A DNA stretch of 64,000 nucleotides from an uncultured bacterium. Lineage in GTDB: Bacteria; Fidelibacterota; Marinisomatia; SCGC-AAA003-L08; JACNLC01. Below, piece after piece: positions 38,491 to 48,270 of this stretch (the stretch's first letter is position 1; every line of letters starts with the position of its first letter). Below the pieces are notes generated by a model. The model searched no databases, was not told the origin of the DNA, and was given only the letters and a program-made list of their open reading frames with translations. The stretch is from positions 6,421 to 70,420 of the forward strand of contig CAYPCW010000003.1 of the NCBI GenBank assembly GCA_964409335.1. Direction: 5' to 3'. A program made the position numbers and the translations under genes.

Positions 38491-39030
38491 ATGGAAGCCA
38501 ACATCATCGAATATATCAGACAGGCTCAAAAGGGCGATCAACGTGCATTCCATGCATTAGTGACATTTTATGATAATCGTGTATCCAATTTGATATATTC
38601 GATCGTACTTAATCGACAGGATACAGAAGATCTTTATCAGGAGATATTCCTGAAAGTATGGAAAAAGATCAGAAGTTTTCAATTTCGAAGCGACTTTTAT
38701 TCTTGGCTCTACAAGATTACCGTTAATACATGCTACAATTTCACAAAAAAACGGGCAAGGGTACGCACGGAAGATGGCGATGAAATTTTGGATAATACAA
38801 TATATCCATTTGAAGATAACGATCCCAATAAATTGGAAGCTGTCAAAGCGCTTTATTCAGCGATACAAAATTTATCTCCACGATTAAGAACAATTACGGT
38901 AATGCATTATCTTGAAGGCACTACGATCAGTAATATTTCCGTAATACTGAGAATTGAGGAGGGTACAATAAAAAAATATTTATTCCGGGCACGGGAAATA
39001 TTGAGAAAGGAGCTGGCTTTTTATGCCTGA
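38491..39030 (+). CDS. ECF-type RNA polymerase sigma-70 family factor
   Basis: 179 aa. Region 2 (DLYQEIFLKVWKK...F.SWLYKITVN) and region 4 (LSPRLRTITVMHYLEGTTISNISVIL...GTIKKYLFRAR). Confidence 0.85.
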   Translation: MEANIIEYIRQAQKGDQRAFHALVTFYDNRVSNLIYSIVLNRQDTEDLYQEIFLKVWKKIRSFQFRSDFYSWLYKITVNTCYNFTKKRARVRTEDGDEILDNTIYPFEDNDPNKLEAVKALYSAIQNLSPRLRTITVMHYLEGTTISNISVILRIEEGTIKKYLFRAREILRKELAFYA

Positions 39031-39859
39031 TATCTTTGAAAAGGAAATTTCAGAATACTCTGGAAGCAAATTAAATATCAATGAAAAATGGTTGAGTTAC
39101 CAACGGAACAAACTCATTGGTGCAATTGATCAAATCGAAAGCAGCAACGCTATAGACTTTCCCTTTAAATGGATCTTTTTCAAATTTCAGGAAGCGCCTT
39201 TGTCCTTTGCCCTTGTGTGTATTTTTTCCCTAATTGCGGGATTCTCCGCGGGTTTTTTCTTCAACGCATCCTATTCGGGCGGTAATGATCGTGCCGGGTT
39301 GAATATCATGGATATGTTGTCTTCAGATAAAATTTCCACAGTACAGTTAGATATTGATAAAAACTTAGCCGAACCATACATTTTTAAATTCCTATCCAAC
39401 GATGATTATCAATATGCAGGCCGAGAAAATGATCAAAACGTAATACTCCTGCTTGACCACATGCTGAATAACACTGCCAATCCCGGTGATCGGTTAAAAC
39501 TGGCGCGTAAACTTTCAGATACCGGAGTCACAAATGACATGGCTTTATCGGTAATTATTAAAGCTCTGCTGTTAGAGGACAATACAGCGATCCAATCGGT
39601 GCTGATCGAAAGTCTTCAGCACAATGAAACGACCACTGCCCGAGATGCTCTGCTCCAAATTGTCATTGGGCACTACGATGCTCCTGTCAGATTATCCGCA
39701 CTTAAATACCTGACTCAATTCTCATCAGACCCCCACGTTACTCAAATATTGAAGGTCGTCTCAATATCCGATGAAAATCCATCAGTACGATATACTGCAG
39801 AAAAATTACTCATGGCATCAATAAAGTCTGTCCAAACCGGTGGTGAAATTAAAAAATAA
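39023..39859 (+). CDS. putative anti-sigma factor, single-pass, with extracytoplasmic HEAT-like repeats
   Basis: 278 aa. Overlaps the sigma gene by 8 nt. One TM (LSFALVCIFSLIAGFSAGFFF). C-terminal repeats ...ARDALLQIV...PVRLSALKYL...ENPSVRYTAEKLL. No HxxxCxxC zinc motif. The role is inferred from position. Confidence 0.5.
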   Translation: MPDIFEKEISEYSGSKLNINEKWLSYQRNKLIGAIDQIESSNAIDFPFKWIFFKFQEAPLSFALVCIFSLIAGFSAGFFFNASYSGGNDRAGLNIMDMLSSDKISTVQLDIDKNLAEPYIFKFLSNDDYQYAGRENDQNVILLLDHMLNNTANPGDRLKLARKLSDTGVTNDMALSVIIKALLLEDNTAIQSVLIESLQHNETTTARDALLQIVIGHYDAPVRLSALKYLTQFSSDPHVTQILKVVSISDENPSVRYTAEKLLMASIKSVQTGGEIKK

Positions 39860-41013
39860 TGAGATCTTTTATCACAATCTTGCTCTTTTCTCTCGCTGTA
39901 AGCGGGCAAAGTATCACATTTGAATACGAATTAAATTCGGAAAGCGATACTTTACTTTTATTAAAATCCATTGATGGACCCATAACCGTTCGGGGGTCAG
40001 CTCAAAAAAATATTAAAATCGTTCAGCGTATCAGTTCCAATTTTGATATTGAGTCTTTAAATAAAGGAAATCTTAAATCTGTTAACCAGATTGTTGAATT
40101 TAATGAACAGCCTGGTATTTCAATCACAATAGATCGATCATATGATATCACGGTTCCAAAAAATATGAATATCCGCTTCGATCTTTTAGGGGGCAAGATT
40201 GATGTAACCGACATCCACGGCTCCTTAAAATTGGTAAAATTAAGCGGAGAAATAACCCTAAATGAGATCGAAGGAAAGGTGCATGTCACGACCGGCAACG
40301 GAGACTTAACTATTAACAATGTAAAGGGCGACATTTTGGGCTCTGCCCTAAATGGCAATATATTCACAGGGAATACCCAGGGAAAACTTCATCTGGAAAC
40401 AGGGAGTGGAGATTTATCTATCATCGAACACTCGGGAAATCTTATGATGAAAACATATGTGGGTAACTGTATCATTCAAAATACCATCGGAGACTCCATT
40501 CACGCCCTTACCCGAGGAGGTGATATTGCTATCCACTCACTATCATCAAATGATGGAATATTTAACACAATGGCAGGAGATATCTTACTTGAAAACGTTG
40601 ATGGAAATATTTCTACTGAAACATATGGAGGTATTATTTCAGGGTCAAATTGGACGGGGGATTTCACTTTGCAGAACTATTCAGGCGGTCTTTCCCTCGA
40701 TAATATTCACGGCAACCTGAAGATAAATTCATTTTATGGGAATGTCAGAATTCGTAGATATTTCCCAGACGAATCAATCGGGGATTCTTCCATAATTAAA
40801 ATTGTCTCGGGAAATCTGAATATGAGTTACACAGGAGACCACGTAGGCTTGGATGTGAAAACCCAGGGAGGGGCAATCACCAGTAATATTTTAAAAATGG
40901 TTGGGAAACTTCCATATATTGGGGTATATCATCCTGAAAACGAAATTCACACTATCAGCGTAACTTTATTGAATGGTAACATTATTATTAATAAAGGAAT
41001 CGTCAATGACTGA
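39859..41013 (+). CDS. DUF4097-type (putative adhesin / beta-solenoid) repeat protein
   Basis: 384 aa. Signal peptide and more than 10 iterations of G-[GNS]-[GDN]-[IL] rungs (GNGDLTINNVKGDI, GSGDLSIIEHSGNL, GGDIAIHSL, AGDILLENVDGNI...). TAATG overlap with the upstream gene. Confidence 0.7.
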   Translation: MRSFITILLFSLAVSGQSITFEYELNSESDTLLLLKSIDGPITVRGSAQKNIKIVQRISSNFDIESLNKGNLKSVNQIVEFNEQPGISITIDRSYDITVPKNMNIRFDLLGGKIDVTDIHGSLKLVKLSGEITLNEIEGKVHVTTGNGDLTINNVKGDILGSALNGNIFTGNTQGKLHLETGSGDLSIIEHSGNLMMKTYVGNCIIQNTIGDSIHALTRGGDIAIHSLSSNDGIFNTMAGDILLENVDGNISTETYGGIISGSNWTGDFTLQNYSGGLSLDNIHGNLKINSFYGNVRIRRYFPDESIGDSSIIKIVSGNLNMSYTGDHVGLDVKTQGGAITSNILKMVGKLPYIGVYHPENEIHTISVTLLNGNIIINKGIVND

Positions 41014-42529
41014 TCGGTATTATAAAATCGTTTTATTCGGTATCACAGTACTCTCCCTCATTTTGGGTTCATCCGGATTGGTCTCCTCAAAATCTTCTGA
41101 CGAAGAAGCGGAATCCAGGGAATTGATCCGGGACAAGGGTGTTACGAAAATTTTCAGCGATTATGAGATCACTGAAGATATGGTCTTAAACGGAAATTTA
41201 AAGATCATCGGGGGTGGGTTGGTCGTAAAAGGAACCGTAAATGGTGAAATCCAGGTGCTTGGTGGTGATATTAAAATCAATAAATCAGCCGTGATAAACG
41301 GAACCATCATCGCCATCGGTGGACAAATTGACAAAGACCCTGAAGCAACCATTAAGGGAGAAGTGCTGGAACTGAATAAAGATAAATTTTCAATCTCAAG
41401 GGATTGGGAAGGGGACAAGGGCATTCACCTAAATGATTGGATAAAAAGCGACGGCCCCTGTACTGCTTGTTCTATATTTGATCCAAAGCGACCCCACTCT
41501 CATCCCTATAAAGACGGTGGATGGATGCGGTATAATCGGACTGAAGGTCTTTATCTTCAGATGAATTTTCATGTGGAAAATGAATTTCTACCCGGGAACA
41601 TACTATACGGAGGTGTGGGTCGATCCTTTCACAGAAATAAGTATAGCGGTATTATCGGATTTGAGCAGCGATTGTTTCAGGATTCCTTTCAATTGTACAT
41701 TGAAAAATATAACAGGTCCACTTCAGAGGATACACTCAGGATCAACGGTGTCTTGAATTCTTTGGCTGCGTTTTTTATCCACCAGGATTTTTTGGACTGG
41801 TATGAAGCAGATGGATTCGGTGCCGGCGGATTCATCACCCTTCCCTGGAAGATAAAAATATCTGTTCAATATCGGGACGAATTGCAAAGTCAGATGAATA
41901 CCGTCGCTACCTGGTCACTATTCGGAAGCCAGGAGGTATTCCGGGGAACCTATTTGATCGAAGAAGGAAAAGAAATTTCCCTGAATTATAAAATTAGTAT
42001 TGGACAGCCTTATCAATGGAATTGTACTTCATCAGTCCTGGGGTATCTTCAATATTCAAAGACTGAATCGCAAAAAAAATCTGACTTCATTTACACAAAG
42101 CAGGACCTGATAGCGGACTCCTATTTCCCGTTTACCAGAAAATTAGGCATTCATACTCAAGTTAAAGCCGGATCTGTTTACGGTGATCATTTTGGTTTGC
42201 AGCATCGGTATTTAATTGGCGGAATTGGATCATTACGAGGATACACCTGGAAGCAATTTGACGGGACCCGTTTCTCTTCCGGGACAATCGAGATTGTTTT
42301 TGATGGTATCGCGGTTTTCTATGACCGGGCAGCCATCTGGTCTGATGGCGCCGATGAACTTTCATCAAACCACTGGGATAAATTACTGAATTCTCACAAT
42401 GGGGAATCCATTGGTTTTAGTTTTGGTTCTCACAGATCTCGTATTGATATCATAAAACCGTTGGGTACTGAAGGAGCTCAGAGCATTCAAATCAATTTTG
42501 TATTATATTACGGTAAGAGAGCATATTGA
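41006..42529 (+). CDS. secreted protein: bactofilin-like beta-helix repeats fused to an Omp85-like C-terminal region
   Basis: Start placed at ATG 41006 (MTDRYYKIVLFGITVL..., ATGA overlap). The N-terminal part LNGNLKIIGGGLVVKGTVNGEIQVLGGDIKINKSAVINGTIIAIGGQI resembles polymer-forming (bactofilin/DUF583) repeats. The C-terminal ~320 aa is aromatic/Gly-rich with GGIGSLRGY (42218-42244), the RGY-type motif of Omp85/TpsB barrels. Confidence 0.6.
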   Translation: MTDRYYKIVLFGITVLSLILGSSGLVSSKSSDEEAESRELIRDKGVTKIFSDYEITEDMVLNGNLKIIGGGLVVKGTVNGEIQVLGGDIKINKSAVINGTIIAIGGQIDKDPEATIKGEVLELNKDKFSISRDWEGDKGIHLNDWIKSDGPCTACSIFDPKRPHSHPYKDGGWMRYNRTEGLYLQMNFHVENEFLPGNILYGGVGRSFHRNKYSGIIGFEQRLFQDSFQLYIEKYNRSTSEDTLRINGVLNSLAAFFIHQDFLDWYEADGFGAGGFITLPWKIKISVQYRDELQSQMNTVATWSLFGSQEVFRGTYLIEEGKEISLNYKISIGQPYQWNCTSSVLGYLQYSKTESQKKSDFIYTKQDLIADSYFPFTRKLGIHTQVKAGSVYGDHFGLQHRYLIGGIGSLRGYTWKQFDGTRFSSGTIEIVFDGIAVFYDRAAIWSDGADELSSNHWDKLLNSHNGESIGFSFGSHRSRIDIIKPLGTEGAQSIQINFVLYYGKRAY

Positions 42530-42531
42530 TA

Positions 42532-43389
42532 ATGAAAAAAGTGATATTTATTGCAATGCTCATCTGCCTGATTTTCCCCAGTAATAAGGAAAAAATCCTT
42601 ACATTAAACGAACCACTTTACAATATAAAATCCATGAAAGTGAATATTGACTACAGTTTGGGGAATTTAGTGATCGAAGCGGGACAGCCCGATATGGCTG
42701 TAACCGGATACTTAAAATATTTTTATCAAAATATTGATGGATTGTTAGAATACGAAAAATTTGGCAGTACTGGTATTCTTCGGCTCGAAACGGAAGTAGA
42801 TATAGATTGGGATATCAATTATAAAAATTACGGTAAAAATAAAGTATACAATGAAAGCGAACTGTATCTTTCCCCTAAAATTCCCTTAAAAATGAATGTC
42901 GACGTGGGAATGGGAAAATCAACATTGTCCCTTCAGCAGTTAAAAATTGAAAATTTTGTTTTAGATTGCGGTATGTGTGAAACAAAGGTTGACTTTGGCG
43001 AGAGTTATAACCCTGTGGACTGTATGAAGATCGATGTAGACGCCGGATTGGGTTCTGCGACACTGAAAAATCTATTGAACTCAAATTCAGATCAAATGGA
43101 GTTTGAATGTGGATTAGGGACAATGAATCTCGAATTTGGCGGACAGTTAAAACATGACGTTGAAGTGGACATATCCGTTGGATTGGGAGCCGTGAATATT
43201 GAGATTCCGAAGGGGACAAACGTCATTTTTAAGTATGACGGATCGTTTTTGTCCAGTGTGGATCTGGATGATTTTTCAAATCATGGTGACGAGTACCGAA
43301 GCCGGGTCATTAACGATGCAAATTTTACAATCTATATCACCGGGTCCATTGGTGCAGGTTCTTTAAAAATAAAATGGATCGAAAATTAA
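42532..43389 (+). CDS. 'toast-rack' (LiaF C-terminal/DUF2154-like) repeat protein
   Basis: About 285 aa. Signal peptide and repeated G[LM]G rungs (DVGMGKSTLSL, DAGLGSATLKNL, CGLGTMNLEF, VGLGAVNIEIPKGTNV, GAGSLKIKW). ATG 42532 is preferred over TTG 42526. Confidence 0.55.
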   Translation: MKKVIFIAMLICLIFPSNKEKILTLNEPLYNIKSMKVNIDYSLGNLVIEAGQPDMAVTGYLKYFYQNIDGLLEYEKFGSTGILRLETEVDIDWDINYKNYGKNKVYNESELYLSPKIPLKMNVDVGMGKSTLSLQQLKIENFVLDCGMCETKVDFGESYNPVDCMKIDVDAGLGSATLKNLLNSNSDQMEFECGLGTMNLEFGGQLKHDVEVDISVGLGAVNIEIPKGTNVIFKYDGSFLSSVDLDDFSNHGDEYRSRVINDANFTIYITGSIGAGSLKIKWIEN

Positions 43390-43534
43390 ATCAGTCTGCC
43401 ACAATCAACCCTGACATAGTTATATCATTGTTTCAGGAAAAATATCAATTTAATATGAGTGGATAATCATTCCATTGTCTTTCTTTCGCTCTAACTTAAT
43501 GTAATTAAATGATTTATCAATGTTTTCATCTCCG

Positions 43535-43549
43535 TGGCACATCATTTGC
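43535..43549 (+). promoter_or_regulatory. sigma-54 (-24/-12) promoter
   Basis: TGGCAC-ATCAT-TTGC matches TGGCAC-N5-TTGC exactly. It lies about 50 nt upstream of ATG 43600, which is preceded by GGAG. A sigma-54 activator gene is 3.3 kb downstream. Confidence 0.6.
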
Positions 43550-43599
43550 GCACTTTCTTCTGAAGTTGGATTAACACATGATTAATTTTGGAGATTAAA

Positions 43600-44856
43600 A
43601 TGATCACACACAATAAAATCAAACTACTTACCGTTCTGTCAGTACTTGCCTTTTCTTTAGTTTATGCTATCAATTTTCAGGATGAGGAAGAATTGAAAAA
43701 TGTAGACAAGAATATGGAAAATTTTGAGATAAATATGCACAATTGGGAAATCCAAATGGAAAAATGGGGGGATGACCTTGAAAAATCAATTGAACAGGGT
43801 GAGACAATCCCGCCCCTTCCACCGGTTCCATCACTGAAAATGGTTAAAGAATTTGACGACAAGTCGCTCAAACTGGGTATCTACATCGAAAACATGGACT
43901 TTGAAGAAGCCTATCAAAGACATTATCCTGAATGTTACGGTGTGCTGGTCACCGGTGTGGTCCATGGCGGTAATGCGGACAGAGCCGGCATCATTAAGGA
44001 CGACATCATCATGGAATTTGGTGGTGAAAAAGTCCGGTACGAATCTCATTTGTTAAATCTTCGGGACAGCAAAAAAATCGGCGACTCTGTCCCGATCAAA
44101 TACTTTCGAAATGAGAAGATCATGGAAACGACCCTCGTATTCGCTCTACCTTCTCTGCCTGGGGATGATGACGAAACCTGGACGGATTTACAAAAATTTG
44201 GCAAAACTAAAAGTTATTCGGTTGGATATGGCGGCGGAGGTCCTCTCGGAATTAAAGTCGACTATGACCTTACCAATTTGAATAACTTTATCAACCAGTA
44301 CGGCTTTCGCCCCATTAATAAAAATTCTCTGGTTTACTTTGGCGGGTATGGAATGGGAAACGTGGGTAAAGGATTATTCATTGGCGGTATGGGCGCCGGA
44401 CTAAAATATGATCAAAAATTTACAACGCCGGATGATGGCTATACACGATTGTTAAATATTGAATCCGGTTTTGGCGGTGTCACTCTATTGAAAAAAATGC
44501 CCCTGTTCTCTTCAAATATTATCGTCGATTTGGGTACTACCCTCGGCGGGGGGACAACATCTATTGAGATCGCTCAGTCCGATGGAAATTTTTCCTGGGA
44601 TGGCACCCCGCTGATTGATGGACCCAACTGGTATGCCAGGTATGAGAAAAATTATTTGGTGGTTTATCCGACCGTCGGGGTACTGATCAGGATTAAAAGT
44701 TGGCTCGGACTGCACGCTTCCGCCGGTTACCTTTGGAACTATTCCATCAAGGATAACTGGACATCACTCCCCTTTGAATATGATGTTACAGGTGATAATG
44801 AACCAGACCCATTTGGCGGACAAACAATTGAGGTGGGCGTGTGGTTTGGTAACTAA
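43600..44856 (+). CDS. PDZ domain protein with Gly-rich C-terminal (beta-barrel-like) region
   Basis: About 418 aa from ATG 43600. N-terminal signal/anchor, helical acidic segment, PDZ (GVLVTGVVHGGNADRAGIIKDDIIMEFGGEKV). The C-terminal ~220 aa has GYGGGG, GGYGMGNVGKG, GGMGAG and GFGG runs and alternating hydrophobic strands. No protease domain. Confidence 0.7.
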   Translation: MITHNKIKLLTVLSVLAFSLVYAINFQDEEELKNVDKNMENFEINMHNWEIQMEKWGDDLEKSIEQGETIPPLPPVPSLKMVKEFDDKSLKLGIYIENMDFEEAYQRHYPECYGVLVTGVVHGGNADRAGIIKDDIIMEFGGEKVRYESHLLNLRDSKKIGDSVPIKYFRNEKIMETTLVFALPSLPGDDDETWTDLQKFGKTKSYSVGYGGGGPLGIKVDYDLTNLNNFINQYGFRPINKNSLVYFGGYGMGNVGKGLFIGGMGAGLKYDQKFTTPDDGYTRLLNIESGFGGVTLLKKMPLFSSNIIVDLGTTLGGGTTSIEIAQSDGNFSWDGTPLIDGPNWYARYEKNYLVVYPTVGVLIRIKSWLGLHASAGYLWNYSIKDNWTSLPFEYDVTGDNEPDPFGGQTIEVGVWFGN

Positions 44857-44874
44857 ACTATAATTCTCCGAATT

Positions 44875-44912
44875 AAAGAGCAGATCGGAATTTCTAATCT
44901 GCTCTTTTTTTT
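44875..44912 (+). terminator. Rho-independent terminator after the PDZ gene
   Basis: AAAGAGCAGAT-(11 nt loop)-ATCTGCTCTTT followed by a T-run to 44912. Confidence 0.8.
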
Positions 44913-45128
44913 GATGTAAATGTCTCAGGTCTGTTTTAATTTACCGCGGGTTATCAGAATCAGATTCCTCCAACCGGTATTTTTACACTTACGATAAAAA
45001 TAATTTGTCTGTTTGACAACTCATTAAATGGGTAACCGGTAATAAAAGTGATCCATTCGATAATGACAATCATATCAATTTTAACATGATTTATTGGCAT
45101 GTACACAACATAAGAGAACAGAACCAAA

Positions 45129-45692
45129 TTGTTTACTGACAAAATTATTTCCGGTATTATCGCATTAGGCTCGTTGATTTATTCCACTATCCCAGGTGTG
45201 AATGCAGAATTCTCCCCCATTGTTCTTTTCCCCAGAAGTGGCGCATTGTTGGTCAATACTCACCTTGACAATTGTTTTTCACCGGGACTTGACGAAATTA
45301 TACTCACCGGCCATCCAATTCGTTTCCATTTTACCGTTCAGATCATTGAAAATGAGACAAATCATATTATTTTAGAGAACAGTTTTTATCACGAAATTCG
45401 TTACTATCTCCTCGATAAAATCTATAAAGTTCATATTTCTGAAAACCTGGAAACCCTCGAAACAGAATCCTTCCAGCGTGCCAAGGAATATATAACTATT
45501 CTCGAAATGATCAACACCGTTTCGCGTGAAGACATCCGATTTGAAAAAGAGTACTTTGTAAAAATTACAGCGCATCTGGATAAAATCTTCATCCCAAACC
45601 TGGATAAAGAAATCGATCTCATGTTTTACTGGAAAAAAAACAAACCCGAGGTCAGATCGCCCGCTTTTAATCGCATGCTGATCACACAATGA
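45129..45692 (+). CDS. hypothetical secreted protein (possibly DUF4390-like, by context)
   Basis: 187 aa, TTG start, signal-peptide-like N-terminus. ATGA overlap with the downstream kinase. The position directly upstream of an NtrY/NtrX-like pair mirrors the known DUF4390 context. The family is not verifiable by eye. Confidence 0.45.
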   Translation: MFTDKIISGIIALGSLIYSTIPGVNAEFSPIVLFPRSGALLVNTHLDNCFSPGLDEIILTGHPIRFHFTVQIIENETNHIILENSFYHEIRYYLLDKIYKVHISENLETLETESFQRAKEYITILEMINTVSREDIRFEKEYFVKITAHLDKIFIPNLDKEIDLMFYWKKNKPEVRSPAFNRMLITQ

Positions 45693-46879
45693 AATTTCGA
45701 CTCCCTTCTATCAAAATTCAGTTTCTATTTATCGTACAATTCGTGTTGATTTTATCTGTACTTTTTTATCGATTGTATTTCATCCAAAATTTTGAACAAT
45801 ACGAAAATCAGATTGCTAACCTTGGAGTCGAAGACAGGCTTCGATCAATCTACCAGAATTACCGGGATCAAATCGCTCCTGAATATCTTGATGATTTTAA
45901 AATGGATATTGATACGTTGTTGGGTATAACGACCTTAAGTAAGTGGGGCGCCTCGAATTTTGAATCTGAAATGGAGCTCTATTCCCTGTATATCCTTATT
46001 TCTATCATCATTGCAGTATTTTTATTTACTATATTTACTTTTAAACTCATCACCCGGCCGTTGGAAAAACTACAGTATGCGACCCAGGCATTGTCCCGGG
46101 GTGATTTGAATGTTAATGTACCGGAGAGTAAATATTCACCTTTAAACGAACTCATTGTCTCCTTTAATTCGATGGTCAAAGAACTTGAGGCATCACGCGA
46201 CCAACTAATCTCTGCAGAAAAAGAAACAATCTGGCGGGAAATGGCGAGGGTCATGGCTCATGAAATTAAAAATCCACTTACACCCTTACAATTGACAGCT
46301 GAACGACTCGAGTCAAAATTGCTGGAATCAACCGATGCCGTGGTCAGGATCCTTCCCCGGTCGCTGGAGGTGATCAAGGAGGAAATTGCAGGACTGAAAC
46401 GACTGACCGTTGAATTCTCAGAATTTGCACGTCTTCCGGAATCCCTGCCCTCAAACTTCGATCTGGTAAAACTTGTAAAAGAAGTAGTGGCGCCCTATCA
46501 GTCCAAAGCTAAAATTAATTTCAAGGATAAGGAAGAACTACACATATTTGCCGATAGATTTCAAATCAAACAGGTTTTGGTCAATTTAATTCAAAACAGT
46601 ATCCATGCGAGCGAGACTACTCCGGAGATTTCCATACACACCGGGACCGGTGCCGATCAATTGATTTGGGTGACCGTTTCCGATCGGGGAAAAGGGATAC
46701 CTGAGGAGGATATCCCAAGAATATTCGAGCCTTATTTTTCCAAACGTAAAAAAGGGACCGGACTCGGTCTCGCAATTGTGAAAAAAATAGTCGAACACCA
46801 CAATGGTGTTATTTCGGTGACTAGCCGGGTAAATGAAGGAACCTCATTTATGATTAAATTACCGGTGCATTACTATTAA
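45689..46879 (+). CDS. sensor histidine kinase, NtrY-like (TM-HAMP-HisKA-HATPase, no PAS)
   Basis: 396 aa. Two TM segments, HAMP, H-box MAHEIKNPLTPLQLTAERL, N-box LVNLIQNSIHA, G-boxes DRGKGI and GTGLGLAIV. Confidence 0.85.
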   Translation: MKFRLPSIKIQFLFIVQFVLILSVLFYRLYFIQNFEQYENQIANLGVEDRLRSIYQNYRDQIAPEYLDDFKMDIDTLLGITTLSKWGASNFESEMELYSLYILISIIIAVFLFTIFTFKLITRPLEKLQYATQALSRGDLNVNVPESKYSPLNELIVSFNSMVKELEASRDQLISAEKETIWREMARVMAHEIKNPLTPLQLTAERLESKLLESTDAVVRILPRSLEVIKEEIAGLKRLTVEFSEFARLPESLPSNFDLVKLVKEVVAPYQSKAKINFKDKEELHIFADRFQIKQVLVNLIQNSIHASETTPEISIHTGTGADQLIWVTVSDRGKGIPEEDIPRIFEPYFSKRKKGTGLGLAIVKKIVEHHNGVISVTSRVNEGTSFMIKLPVHYY

Positions 46880-46914: not shown

Positions 46915-48270
46915 ATGCGTATTTTAGTCGTTGATGATGAGAAAAATATCCGGTTTACCCTTACCGACATTCTTCAGGATGAGGGATATACCGTGGACAG
47001 TGTGGATAGCGGCGAAAAGTGCCTGGCACGCCTGAAGAGACAAAAATACGAGCTGGTCATTCTGGATGTTCGTATGCCCGGAATGGACGGAATTCAGGTT
47101 TTTCAAAAACTCAAGGAAATTGAATATGATGCTGATGTGCTGGTTATTTCAGGCCATAGCGGAATAGAAACCGCCGTACAGGCGGTAAAGCTCGGAGCAT
47201 ACGATTTTATTGAAAAGCCGCTGTCAATGTCTAAAATTCTCACAGCAGCGAGAAATATTGCACAAAAACAATCCCTACAGTTTACCGCCAGTCAGACCAT
47301 GTCCGATAAACTGAAAAAATATGCGATGATTGGAAATTCTCCCCAAATCCAGAGTATTCGGGATATCATCGAAAAGGCGGCGCCGACGGATACAAAAGTC
47401 CTTATCCGGGGTGAAAGCGGAACTGGAAAAGAATTGGTCGCATGGGCGATTCACGATAAAAGTCATCGACGTGAAAAACCATTTATTGCTTTTAATTCTG
47501 CTGCGCTCCCAACCGAACTGGTTGAAAGTGAACTATTCGGATATGATAAGGGCGCCTTTACCGGTGCCGAAAAGCGGAAGATCGGTAAACTGGAGATGGC
47601 TCATGGGGGAACCCTCTTTTTAGATGAGATCGGCGACATGAGTATGACAACACAGGCTAAAGTTCTCAGGGTGATCCAGGAAGGAACGTTCGAACGGGTG
47701 GGCGGCGAAAGTACTATCCGTATTGATGTGCGTATCCTGGCAGCAACCCACAAAGACCTGGAAAACATGATCTCTGAGAGCGCTTTTCGCCAGGATCTGT
47801 TCTATCGCCTGAATGTTCTGCCGATGAGCATCCCACCCCTTCGGGATCGAACCGGTGATGTCCTGTTTCTCGCAGACCATTTTCTGCAGTATTATGCCAC
47901 AGAACTGAAGGAAGATCTTAAATATCTGACCCCGAAAGCCAAAGCGTGTTTGGAGTCATATGAGTTCCCTGGGAATGTCCGGGAACTGAGAAATCTCATC
48001 GAACGTTTATGCATCCTTGTAACCAATCAGGAGATCACGGATAAAGATGTCCTTCCTCATCTTCGAAACAAAACCGGTAATGACGAAATCTGCGATTTTA
48101 TGACATTTGAAAATTTTTCGGATGCCAGGCGGGAATTTGAAACCCGGTTTATCACTGAAAAACTGAAACAATCCAAATGGAATATCACTGCAGCCGCAGA
48201 GAAACTGGGGATGAGACAACCCAACTTATCCCGAAAAATGAAAGAGCTGAAAATTTCCCGTATCGACTGA
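46915..48270 (+). CDS. sigma-54-dependent Fis-family response regulator (NtrC/NtrX-like)
   Basis: 451 aa. Receiver domain (VDDE...ILDVRMPGMDG), AAA+ with Walker A GESGTGKEL, GAFTGA loop (YDKGAFTGA), LFLDEIG, and a C-terminal HTH (NITAAAEKLGMRQPNLSRK). Confidence 0.9.
   Translation: MRILVVDDEKNIRFTLTDILQDEGYTVDSVDSGEKCLARLKRQKYELVILDVRMPGMDGIQVFQKLKEIEYDADVLVISGHSGIETAVQAVKLGAYDFIEKPLSMSKILTAARNIAQKQSLQFTASQTMSDKLKKYAMIGNSPQIQSIRDIIEKAAPTDTKVLIRGESGTGKELVAWAIHDKSHRREKPFIAFNSAALPTELVESELFGYDKGAFTGAEKRKIGKLEMAHGGTLFLDEIGDMSMTTQAKVLRVIQEGTFERVGGESTIRIDVRILAATHKDLENMISESAFRQDLFYRLNVLPMSIPPLRDRTGDVLFLADHFLQYYATELKEDLKYLTPKAKACLESYEFPGNVRELRNLIERLCILVTNQEITDKDVLPHLRNKTGNDEICDFMTFENFSDARREFETRFITEKLKQSKWNITAAAEKLGMRQPNLSRKMKELKISRID

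Follow-up and report, generated by a model that had tools for sequence, protein, structure and literature searches.

A motif upstream of an outer-membrane PDZ protein gene is very probably a sigma-54 promoter with enhancer sites, conserved across uncultured Marinimicrobia

The stretch of DNA analysed here (the window, 64,000 nucleotides in length) carries at positions 43535-43549 a sequence, TGGCACATCATTTGC, that reads like a textbook sigma-54 promoter, and the question it raises is whether the sequence is used as one and, if so, which activator opens it and for which genes. The window corresponds to G000:C3:6421-70420 of a 2.36 Mb metagenome-assembled genome in 81 contigs with 44.7% G+C, which named homologues of the PDZ protein assign to the Marinimicrobia. 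The Marinimicrobia (also SAR406, Neomarinimicrobiota, or Fidelibacterota) are abundant uncultured ocean bacteria, and to our knowledge almost nothing is known about their gene regulation. A full-text literature search found no paper containing both 'Marinimicrobia' and 'sigma-54', and a 2025 cross-phylum survey of sigma-54 regulons mentions neither Marinimicrobia nor PDZ proteins. We conclude that a genuine sigma-54 promoter is very probably present here, accompanied by enhancer sites on its upstream side and conserved among the uncultured Marinimicrobia, and that through it the two-component regulator encoded nearby probably activates a single outer-membrane PDZ protein. The features in and around the motif are as follows.

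43535-43549, + strand: predicted sigma-54 promoter core TGGCACATCATTTGC (-24 TGGCAC, 5-nt spacer, -12 TTGC), from the consensus match and conservation in orthologues
43561, + strand: predicted transcription start, with the C of the GC doublet taken as -12 and the known geometry of sigma-54 promoters
43590-43593, + strand: ribosome-binding site GGAG, 6 nt 5' of ATG 43600; GGAG and ATG are invariant in a three-way alignment
43600-44856, + strand: PDZ protein (Pfam PDZ_2, AF2 model, Foldseek)

The preliminary description held that the motif matches every specified position of the consensus, that it is the only full match between the genes of the window, and that it lies about 50 nt before ATG 43600, with GGAG 6 nt ahead of that codon. 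All of this stands. The sequence agrees with TGGCAC-N5-TTGC at 10/10 specified positions, with its GG and GC doublets exactly 10 nt apart, and a scan finds it to be the sole exact match in the whole window, coding DNA included; shuffled sequences are expected to give 0.10 matches, and at least one match occurred in 9 of 100 shuffles. It is non-coding, has the same orientation as the PDZ gene, and is located 50 nt 5' of ATG 43600, which the orthologues indicate as the start of the gene in preference to TTG 43588. The gap that holds it extends for 210 nt from the stop of the upstream gene at 43389 to the ATG. This is not the only sizeable gap of the cluster, as had been thought, since the one after the PDZ gene (44857-45128) is larger (272 nt). 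Taking the C of the GC doublet as -12 places the predicted start at 43561 and gives a 5' leader of approximately 39 nt. Neither the gap nor the leader shows an Rfam match near significance that would point to structured RNA.

The uniqueness of the motif in the window does not carry over to the genome, where four exact matches are found against approximately 3.5 expected from base composition. Matches at 8/10 positions or better fall mostly in coding DNA, and near-matches show no enrichment in the non-coding DNA of the genome. As the count is at chance level, frequency provides no evidence, and we have rejected genome-wide enrichment of the strict motif as support; the argument has to rest on context and conservation. 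Among the four exact matches, only TGGCACATCATTTGC is clearly non-coding and ahead of a gene. A second, at G000:C44:5968-5982 on the - strand, falls within an ORF, in its 3' end, with the next gene on that strand starting 77 nt further on, and may be an internal sigma-54 promoter or a chance occurrence.

To evaluate conservation, orthologues of the PDZ gene were gathered from relatives and from a 201-genome sample of the phylum. The footprint set comprises 34 assessable orthologous loci, each from a different genome, although as relatives these are not independent samples. Accepting TGGCAC, TGGCAT, and a few weaker forms, followed by N5 and by TTG with C, T, or A, a -24/-12 element is present 5' of the PDZ gene in 30 of the 34 loci; 29 were found by the automatic criteria and the thirtieth (G216) on visual inspection, its degenerate CGGCCT-N5-TTGA standing at exactly 92 nt from a palindrome, which is the expected distance. 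The element together with a palindrome 75-120 nt upstream of it occurs in 29/34 loci, compared to 0.4% of Markov-resampled controls, and under strict criteria the combination is found in 24/34 loci and in none of 3,400 resamplings. The same-genus locus has TGGCAC-TCCGT-TTGC, that is, another spacer at an equal distance to the ATG. When the locus is aligned with its same-genus and same-family counterparts, the invariant parts are both ATATCA sites, TGGCAC, TTTG, and the ribosome-binding site with the ATG, and the sequence between these blocks has diverged. TGG and TTG thus keep a constant 10-nt register and a constant distance to the palindromes while the intervening spacer varies.

The -12 part is less strictly kept. 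About half of the orthologous promoters (L045, L050, L053, L054, L059-L064, and L070-L072) have TTGT or TTGA rather than TTGC, and the C may be relaxed in this phylum, with a sigma-54 that tolerates T or A. We note that the genome under study also contains TGGTAT-N5-TTGT and TGGTAC-N5-TTGA, each in non-coding DNA immediately following the gene for another enhancer-binding protein (G000:C35:22228 and G000:C2:52096, both + strand).

The upstream part of the footprint consists of a pair of sites.

43422-43427, + strand: predicted distal enhancer site, half-site ATATCA only; invariant in the alignment with same-genus and same-family loci
43442-43456, + strand: predicted proximal enhancer site ATATCAATTTAATAT, with one mismatch to ATATCA-N3-TGATAT, 93 nt before the T of TGGCAC

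Across the loci, the conserved pair is formed by 15-bp palindromes, ATATCA-N3-TGATAT, approximately 93 and 113 nt upstream of the -24/-12 element. Counted back from the T of TGG, the proximal palindrome starts at 90-95 nt in most loci and at 81-83 nt in two, the second palindrome is found approximately 20 nt further upstream, and which of the two is the better palindrome depends on the locus. In many relatives the distal site is a full 15-bp palindrome that starts approximately 113 nt before the T of TGGCAC. Sites within the range of approximately 80-150 nt from the core, where upstream activator sites are looked for, are present in 29-30 of the 34 loci. That the ATATCA repeats might be activator sites had been offered as speculation; given that they turn out to be a palindrome pair conserved across loci at fixed distances, they are the best-supported part of the first interpretation. 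The single mismatch in the proximal palindrome and the reduction of the distal site to a half-site in this genome do count against the promoter reading.

A second inverted repeat had been proposed as an activator site together with the ATATCA repeats. It is formed, imperfectly, by GATAATCATT (43462-43471) and AATGATTTATC (43508-43518), and we rejected it because it is not conserved even in the same genus. An IHF-like sequence, TATCAATGTTTTC, is located at 43514-43526 between the enhancer sites and the promoter, the loci show partial conservation of TA/AT dinucleotides approximately 20 and 30 nt ahead of TGG, and the genome has two genes of the HU/IHF family (C45:20412-20681 and C46:9501-9776); taken together, we consider these observations too weak to claim an IHF site. 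Elsewhere in the genome, palindromes with at most one mismatch number 29 in total, of which 26 are inside ORFs, and the non-coding ones at C4:35619 and C30:16709 have no sigma-54 element nearby. The pairing of such a palindrome with a sigma-54 element is unique to the PDZ promoter, and a wider regulon in this genome was rejected, as no other palindrome pairs with a sigma-54 element at approximately 93 nt.

These data allow one alternative to be evaluated, namely that the -24/-12 element is not used, the PDZ gene owing its transcript to a promoter of the housekeeping sigma factor or to read-through out of the upstream ECF-sigma operon, and the palindromes binding a regulator that is independent of sigma-54, as NtrX-type regulators are in Proteobacteria. 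The chance-level count of the exact motif and the non-canonical -12 element in half of the orthologous promoters would both fit such a case, and no terminator was found between 43389 and the promoter, so that read-through from the ECF-sigma operon may add to PDZ expression. What this alternative does not account for is the fixed register of TGG and TTG and their fixed distance to the palindromes in the face of a changing spacer. Moreover, the genes upstream of the PDZ gene differ in other families, and the element is still present where no ECF operon precedes it, a search of the gap (43390-43599) found no sigma-70-like pair of hexamers, and the regulator encoded nearby has a full AAA+ domain with GAFTGA. 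We regard a silent element as highly improbable.

A sigma-54 promoter presupposes the sigma factor and an activator, and the genome encodes both. The preliminary description had asked that rpoN be confirmed; it is present and complete, as a 474-aa ORF on contig C48 with the AID, CBD, and DBD (PF00309, PF04963, and PF04552). There are seven full enhancer-binding proteins, one of which is encoded 3.3 kb downstream of the motif.

46915-48270, + strand: NtrC-type response regulator and enhancer-binding protein, the proposed activator (Pfam domains, synteny, co-occurrence)

This protein had been put forward as a sigma-54 activator behind a terminator, and its domains bear out the assignment: the REC domain contains Asp51, the AAA+ domain has both Walker motifs (A and B) with GAFTGA intact, and an AAA lid and a Fis-type HTH are also present (PF00072; PF00158, 239 bits; PF25601; PF02954). 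Its scores lie below the NCBIfam cut-offs for NtrC (455 against 558.6 bits), AtoC (425 against 714), NtrX (417 against 600), and ZraR (368 against 760), and it is therefore described as an NtrC-family regulator with no equivalog assignment. The remaining genes of the neighbourhood are listed below.

38491-39030: ECF sigma factor
39023-39859: HEAT-repeat protein
39859-41013: DUF4097 protein
40973-42529: Omp85-like protein
42526-43389: 287-aa protein, family unknown
45129-45692, + strand: DUF4390 (PlrP-like) exported accessory protein (Pfam PF14334, 48 bits; PMC13001219 for PlrP)
45689-46879, + strand: sensor histidine kinase, 396 aa, with two hydrophobic segments followed by HAMP, HisKA, and HATPase
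from 48422: TonB-dependent-receptor-like protein

Linkage of the five-gene ECF-sigma cluster (38491-43389) with the PDZ gene is restricted to this family (G001, G004, G005, G006, and G008). The DUF4390 gene is directly 5' of the kinase gene, with a 4-nt overlap, an arrangement that is kept in relatives; no PAS or PDC domain was found in the kinase with Pfam. The order PDZ-DUF4390-kinase-regulator is shared by the family, two further families of its order, and genomes related at the level of class and phylum. Among the 201 sampled genomes, 71 have both the PDZ-barrel and DUF4390 genes, seven have the PDZ-barrel gene only, two have DUF4390 only, and 121 have neither. DUF4390 was thus found in 73/201 genomes, nearly always beside the PDZ-barrel gene.

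The loci that depart from the pattern are informative. The promoter and palindromes are missing in four, G018 and G022 from one genus and G219 and G129 from another. In all four, no DUF4390 or kinase gene adjoins the PDZ gene and there is no DUF4390 match in the genome. A search for the regulator in three of these, G018, G022, and G219, found no orthologue, the hits being at the level of paralogues (39-43% identity). Conversely, in G006 and G008 the PDZ gene is unlinked from the two-component genes and retains its promoter and palindromes; there, the DUF4390-kinase-regulator set is found elsewhere, with a regulator that is 65% identical over its full length. Since the cis elements are absent along with the regulator and are kept when it is merely unlinked, their presence tracks this regulator rather than enhancer-binding proteins generally, and this co-occurrence is correlative among related genomes.

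This bears on a second alternative, in which the promoter is real and answers to another of the genome's enhancer-binding proteins, of which there are six besides the neighbouring regulator, the latter controlling something else. The number of candidates encoded, seven, and the separation of the PDZ gene from the two-component genes in G006 and G008 could be taken in its favour. Against this, the synteny of the PDZ gene with the DUF4390-kinase-regulator set holds across several families, up to the level of the phylum; loss of the promoter and sites coincides with the absence of DUF4390 (4/4 genomes) and of a regulator orthologue (3/3 searched); and enhancer-binding paralogues persist where the sites are lost, G219 retaining six. 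We judge activation by another protein to be very unlikely and infer, from synteny and co-occurrence, that the 46915-48270 regulator binds the palindromes.

Which genes the promoter serves depends on what follows the PDZ gene.

44875-44912, + strand: intrinsic terminator with an 11-bp main stem and a T-run (-20.5 kcal/mol, z = -5.8, none of 200 shuffles folding as well)

The strength of this hairpin agrees with the terminator that had been claimed between the PDZ gene and the regulator operon, and a hairpin with a T-run is found at the equivalent place in most orthologous loci, where a short AT-rich stretch then leads to the DUF4390 gene. Given the terminator, the PDZ gene is most likely a monocistronic sigma-54 unit, with the sensor genes in a separate operon. 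The alternative is that the promoter drives all four genes, PDZ, DUF4390, kinase, and regulator, as one autoregulated operon. The genes share a strand and a conserved order, and ZraR is known to activate its own operon as well as zraP (PMC4987338), both of which would suit a single transcript. Yet the strong hairpin recurs in most relatives, the AT-rich stretch between it and the DUF4390 gene does so too, and the two units have come apart in G006 and G008; a single operon is, in our view, unlikely. Before the DUF4390 operon (45072-45110), we note an ATATCA at 45072 and a TGGCAT at 45096, overlapping a weak sigma-70-like match (45063-45090). These elements could be a means of autoregulation; as a second enhancer and promoter they were discarded, as there is no -12 TTGC and the arrangement is not conserved in relatives.

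The product of the 43600-44856 gene is unusual. Behind a signal peptide come a long helix and an HtrA-like PDZ domain, which a Gly-rich linker joins to an eight-stranded outer-membrane beta-barrel; a signal-peptide-like N-terminal segment is found in all orthologues. The AF2 model (40-sequence alignment, mean pLDDT 82) places the PDZ domain at residues ~90-180, a disordered Gly-rich linker after it, and an antiparallel barrel at residues 211-417. Foldseek matches the PDZ part with the PDZ domains of HtrA, DegP, and DegQ, and the C-terminal part with the eight-stranded barrels of CarO, OmpA, and Ail. The orthologues mostly end in W-F-G-F, and an aromatic C-terminus of this kind is typical of outer-membrane barrels. 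No protease domain was found: TIGR02037 scores 43.7 bits against a cut-off of 416.2 and covers residues 91-182, the PDZ part, only. Instead of such a domain, the model has the barrel. The PDZ-barrel family is confined to the phylum and a few neighbours, and of its approximately 160 database members none has a name more specific than 'PDZ domain-containing protein'. Two to three PDZ-barrel paralogues in tandem occur in some families of the phylum (for example G046:C11, G057:C6, and G063:C360). HtrA-type PDZ domains bind the C-terminal peptides of outer-membrane proteins.

We therefore return to the question of whether the motif is used. On the evidence of context and conservation, we consider it likely that 43535-43549 is a functional sigma-54 (RpoN) promoter that drives the monocistronic gene 43600-44856 for an exported PDZ and outer-membrane-barrel protein. 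The element is of an ordinary type, the enhancer-dependent sigma-54 promoter, and is newly described for the phylum. Our model predicts that an envelope signal is sensed by the kinase and the DUF4390 protein (45129-46879), expressed from their separate operon behind the terminator, while sigma-54 RNA polymerase waits in a closed complex at the -24/-12 element. The phosphorylated 46915-48270 regulator would bind the half-site at 43422-43427 and the full site at 43442-43456 as dimers, these sites being centred approximately 110 and 130 nt upstream of the predicted start and two helical turns apart. It would then oligomerise into an active ring, loop over the AT-rich spacer, and contact the sigma-54 holoenzyme, and ATP and the GAFTGA loop would open the promoter for a start near 43561 and a 39-nt leader. 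The resulting protein, anchored in the outer membrane, could bind the C-termini of unassembled outer-membrane proteins through its PDZ domain. Promoter opening is modelled here on the behaviour of NtrC-family activators and the role of the PDZ protein on that of HtrA-type PDZ domains, and we infer both the transcription start and the nature of the signal.

A broader reading is that the PDZ-barrel, DUF4390, kinase, and regulator genes constitute an outer-membrane stress circuit that is complete in itself, spans the phylum, and has a regulon of one promoter; in it, the induced PDZ-barrel would capture the C-termini of unassembled outer-membrane proteins and feed back on the kinase via the DUF4390 protein, by analogy with ZraP and CpxP. 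We offer this tentatively and regard it as rather doubtful. If true, sigma-54 action would be shown for a DUF4390-linked system for the first time. In any event, the locus is a testable unit, with a promoter, a predicted operator (two ATATCA-N3-TGATAT sites approximately 20 nt apart), an activator, a sensor plus PlrP-like partner, and one target, and it could be reconstituted in E. coli without culturing the organism. It would extend the DUF4390 (PlrP) accessory proteins to a sigma-54-dependent system outside the Proteobacteria and points to envelope homeostasis as the function of the fusion between a PDZ domain and an outer-membrane barrel.

The closest parallels to the promoter itself are the NtrC-activated promoters of the glnAp2 type. 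Like these, it has a -24 GG and -12 GC core, an AT-rich, bendable spacer, two dyad-symmetric sites at roughly 100-140 nt upstream of the start, separated by approximately two helical turns, and an NtrC-family activator with REC, AAA+ (GAFTGA), and Fis-type HTH domains. It differs in the sequence of the site (ATATCA-N3-TGATAT), in a target that is an envelope protein rather than a protein of nitrogen assimilation, and in an activator that falls short of the NtrC cut-off. The nearest functional analogue is the ZraSR-ZraP system of E. coli and Salmonella, a sigma-54-dependent two-component system that adjoins its main target, an exported envelope protein (PMC4987338). ZraP is thought to deal with misfolded periplasmic and outer-membrane proteins (PMC4987338). 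There, unlike here, zraP is divergent from zraSR, both are sigma-54 dependent, and the target is a small periplasmic chaperone; the present regulator scores well below the ZraR cut-off, and zinc sensing or feedback is not indicated at this locus.

The sensor genes resemble those of the PlrP-PlrS-PlrR subset of NtrYX systems, in which a DUF4390 gene is likewise 5' of the kinase gene with a 4-nt overlap and a response-regulator gene follows (PMC13001219). PlrP is proposed to keep its kinase, PlrS, from acting strongly as a phosphatase, DUF4390 (PlrP-like) proteins have been reported mainly from beta- and gamma-proteobacteria, and the beta-proteobacterial regulators lack the AAA+ domain (PMC13001219, J Bacteriol 2026). 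The present locus, by contrast, has a full regulator with GAFTGA, a short 396-aa kinase in which Pfam finds no PAS or PDC domain, no rsmB neighbour, and a host from another phylum. Of the features that mark a PlrPSR-like system, the DUF4390 gene 5' of the kinase gene is thus found here, and the PAS/PDC kinase and the NtrX-type regulator are not. As for the target, its PDZ domain is of the HtrA type by sequence and by fold, as in DegS and DegP; unlike those proteins it has no protease domain, and the PDZ domain is fused to an eight-stranded outer-membrane barrel. By the criteria that define the NtrYX, ZraSR, and HtrA families, the locus is therefore not a member of any of them, and we suggest by analogy that it works in the manner of NtrYX and ZraSR.
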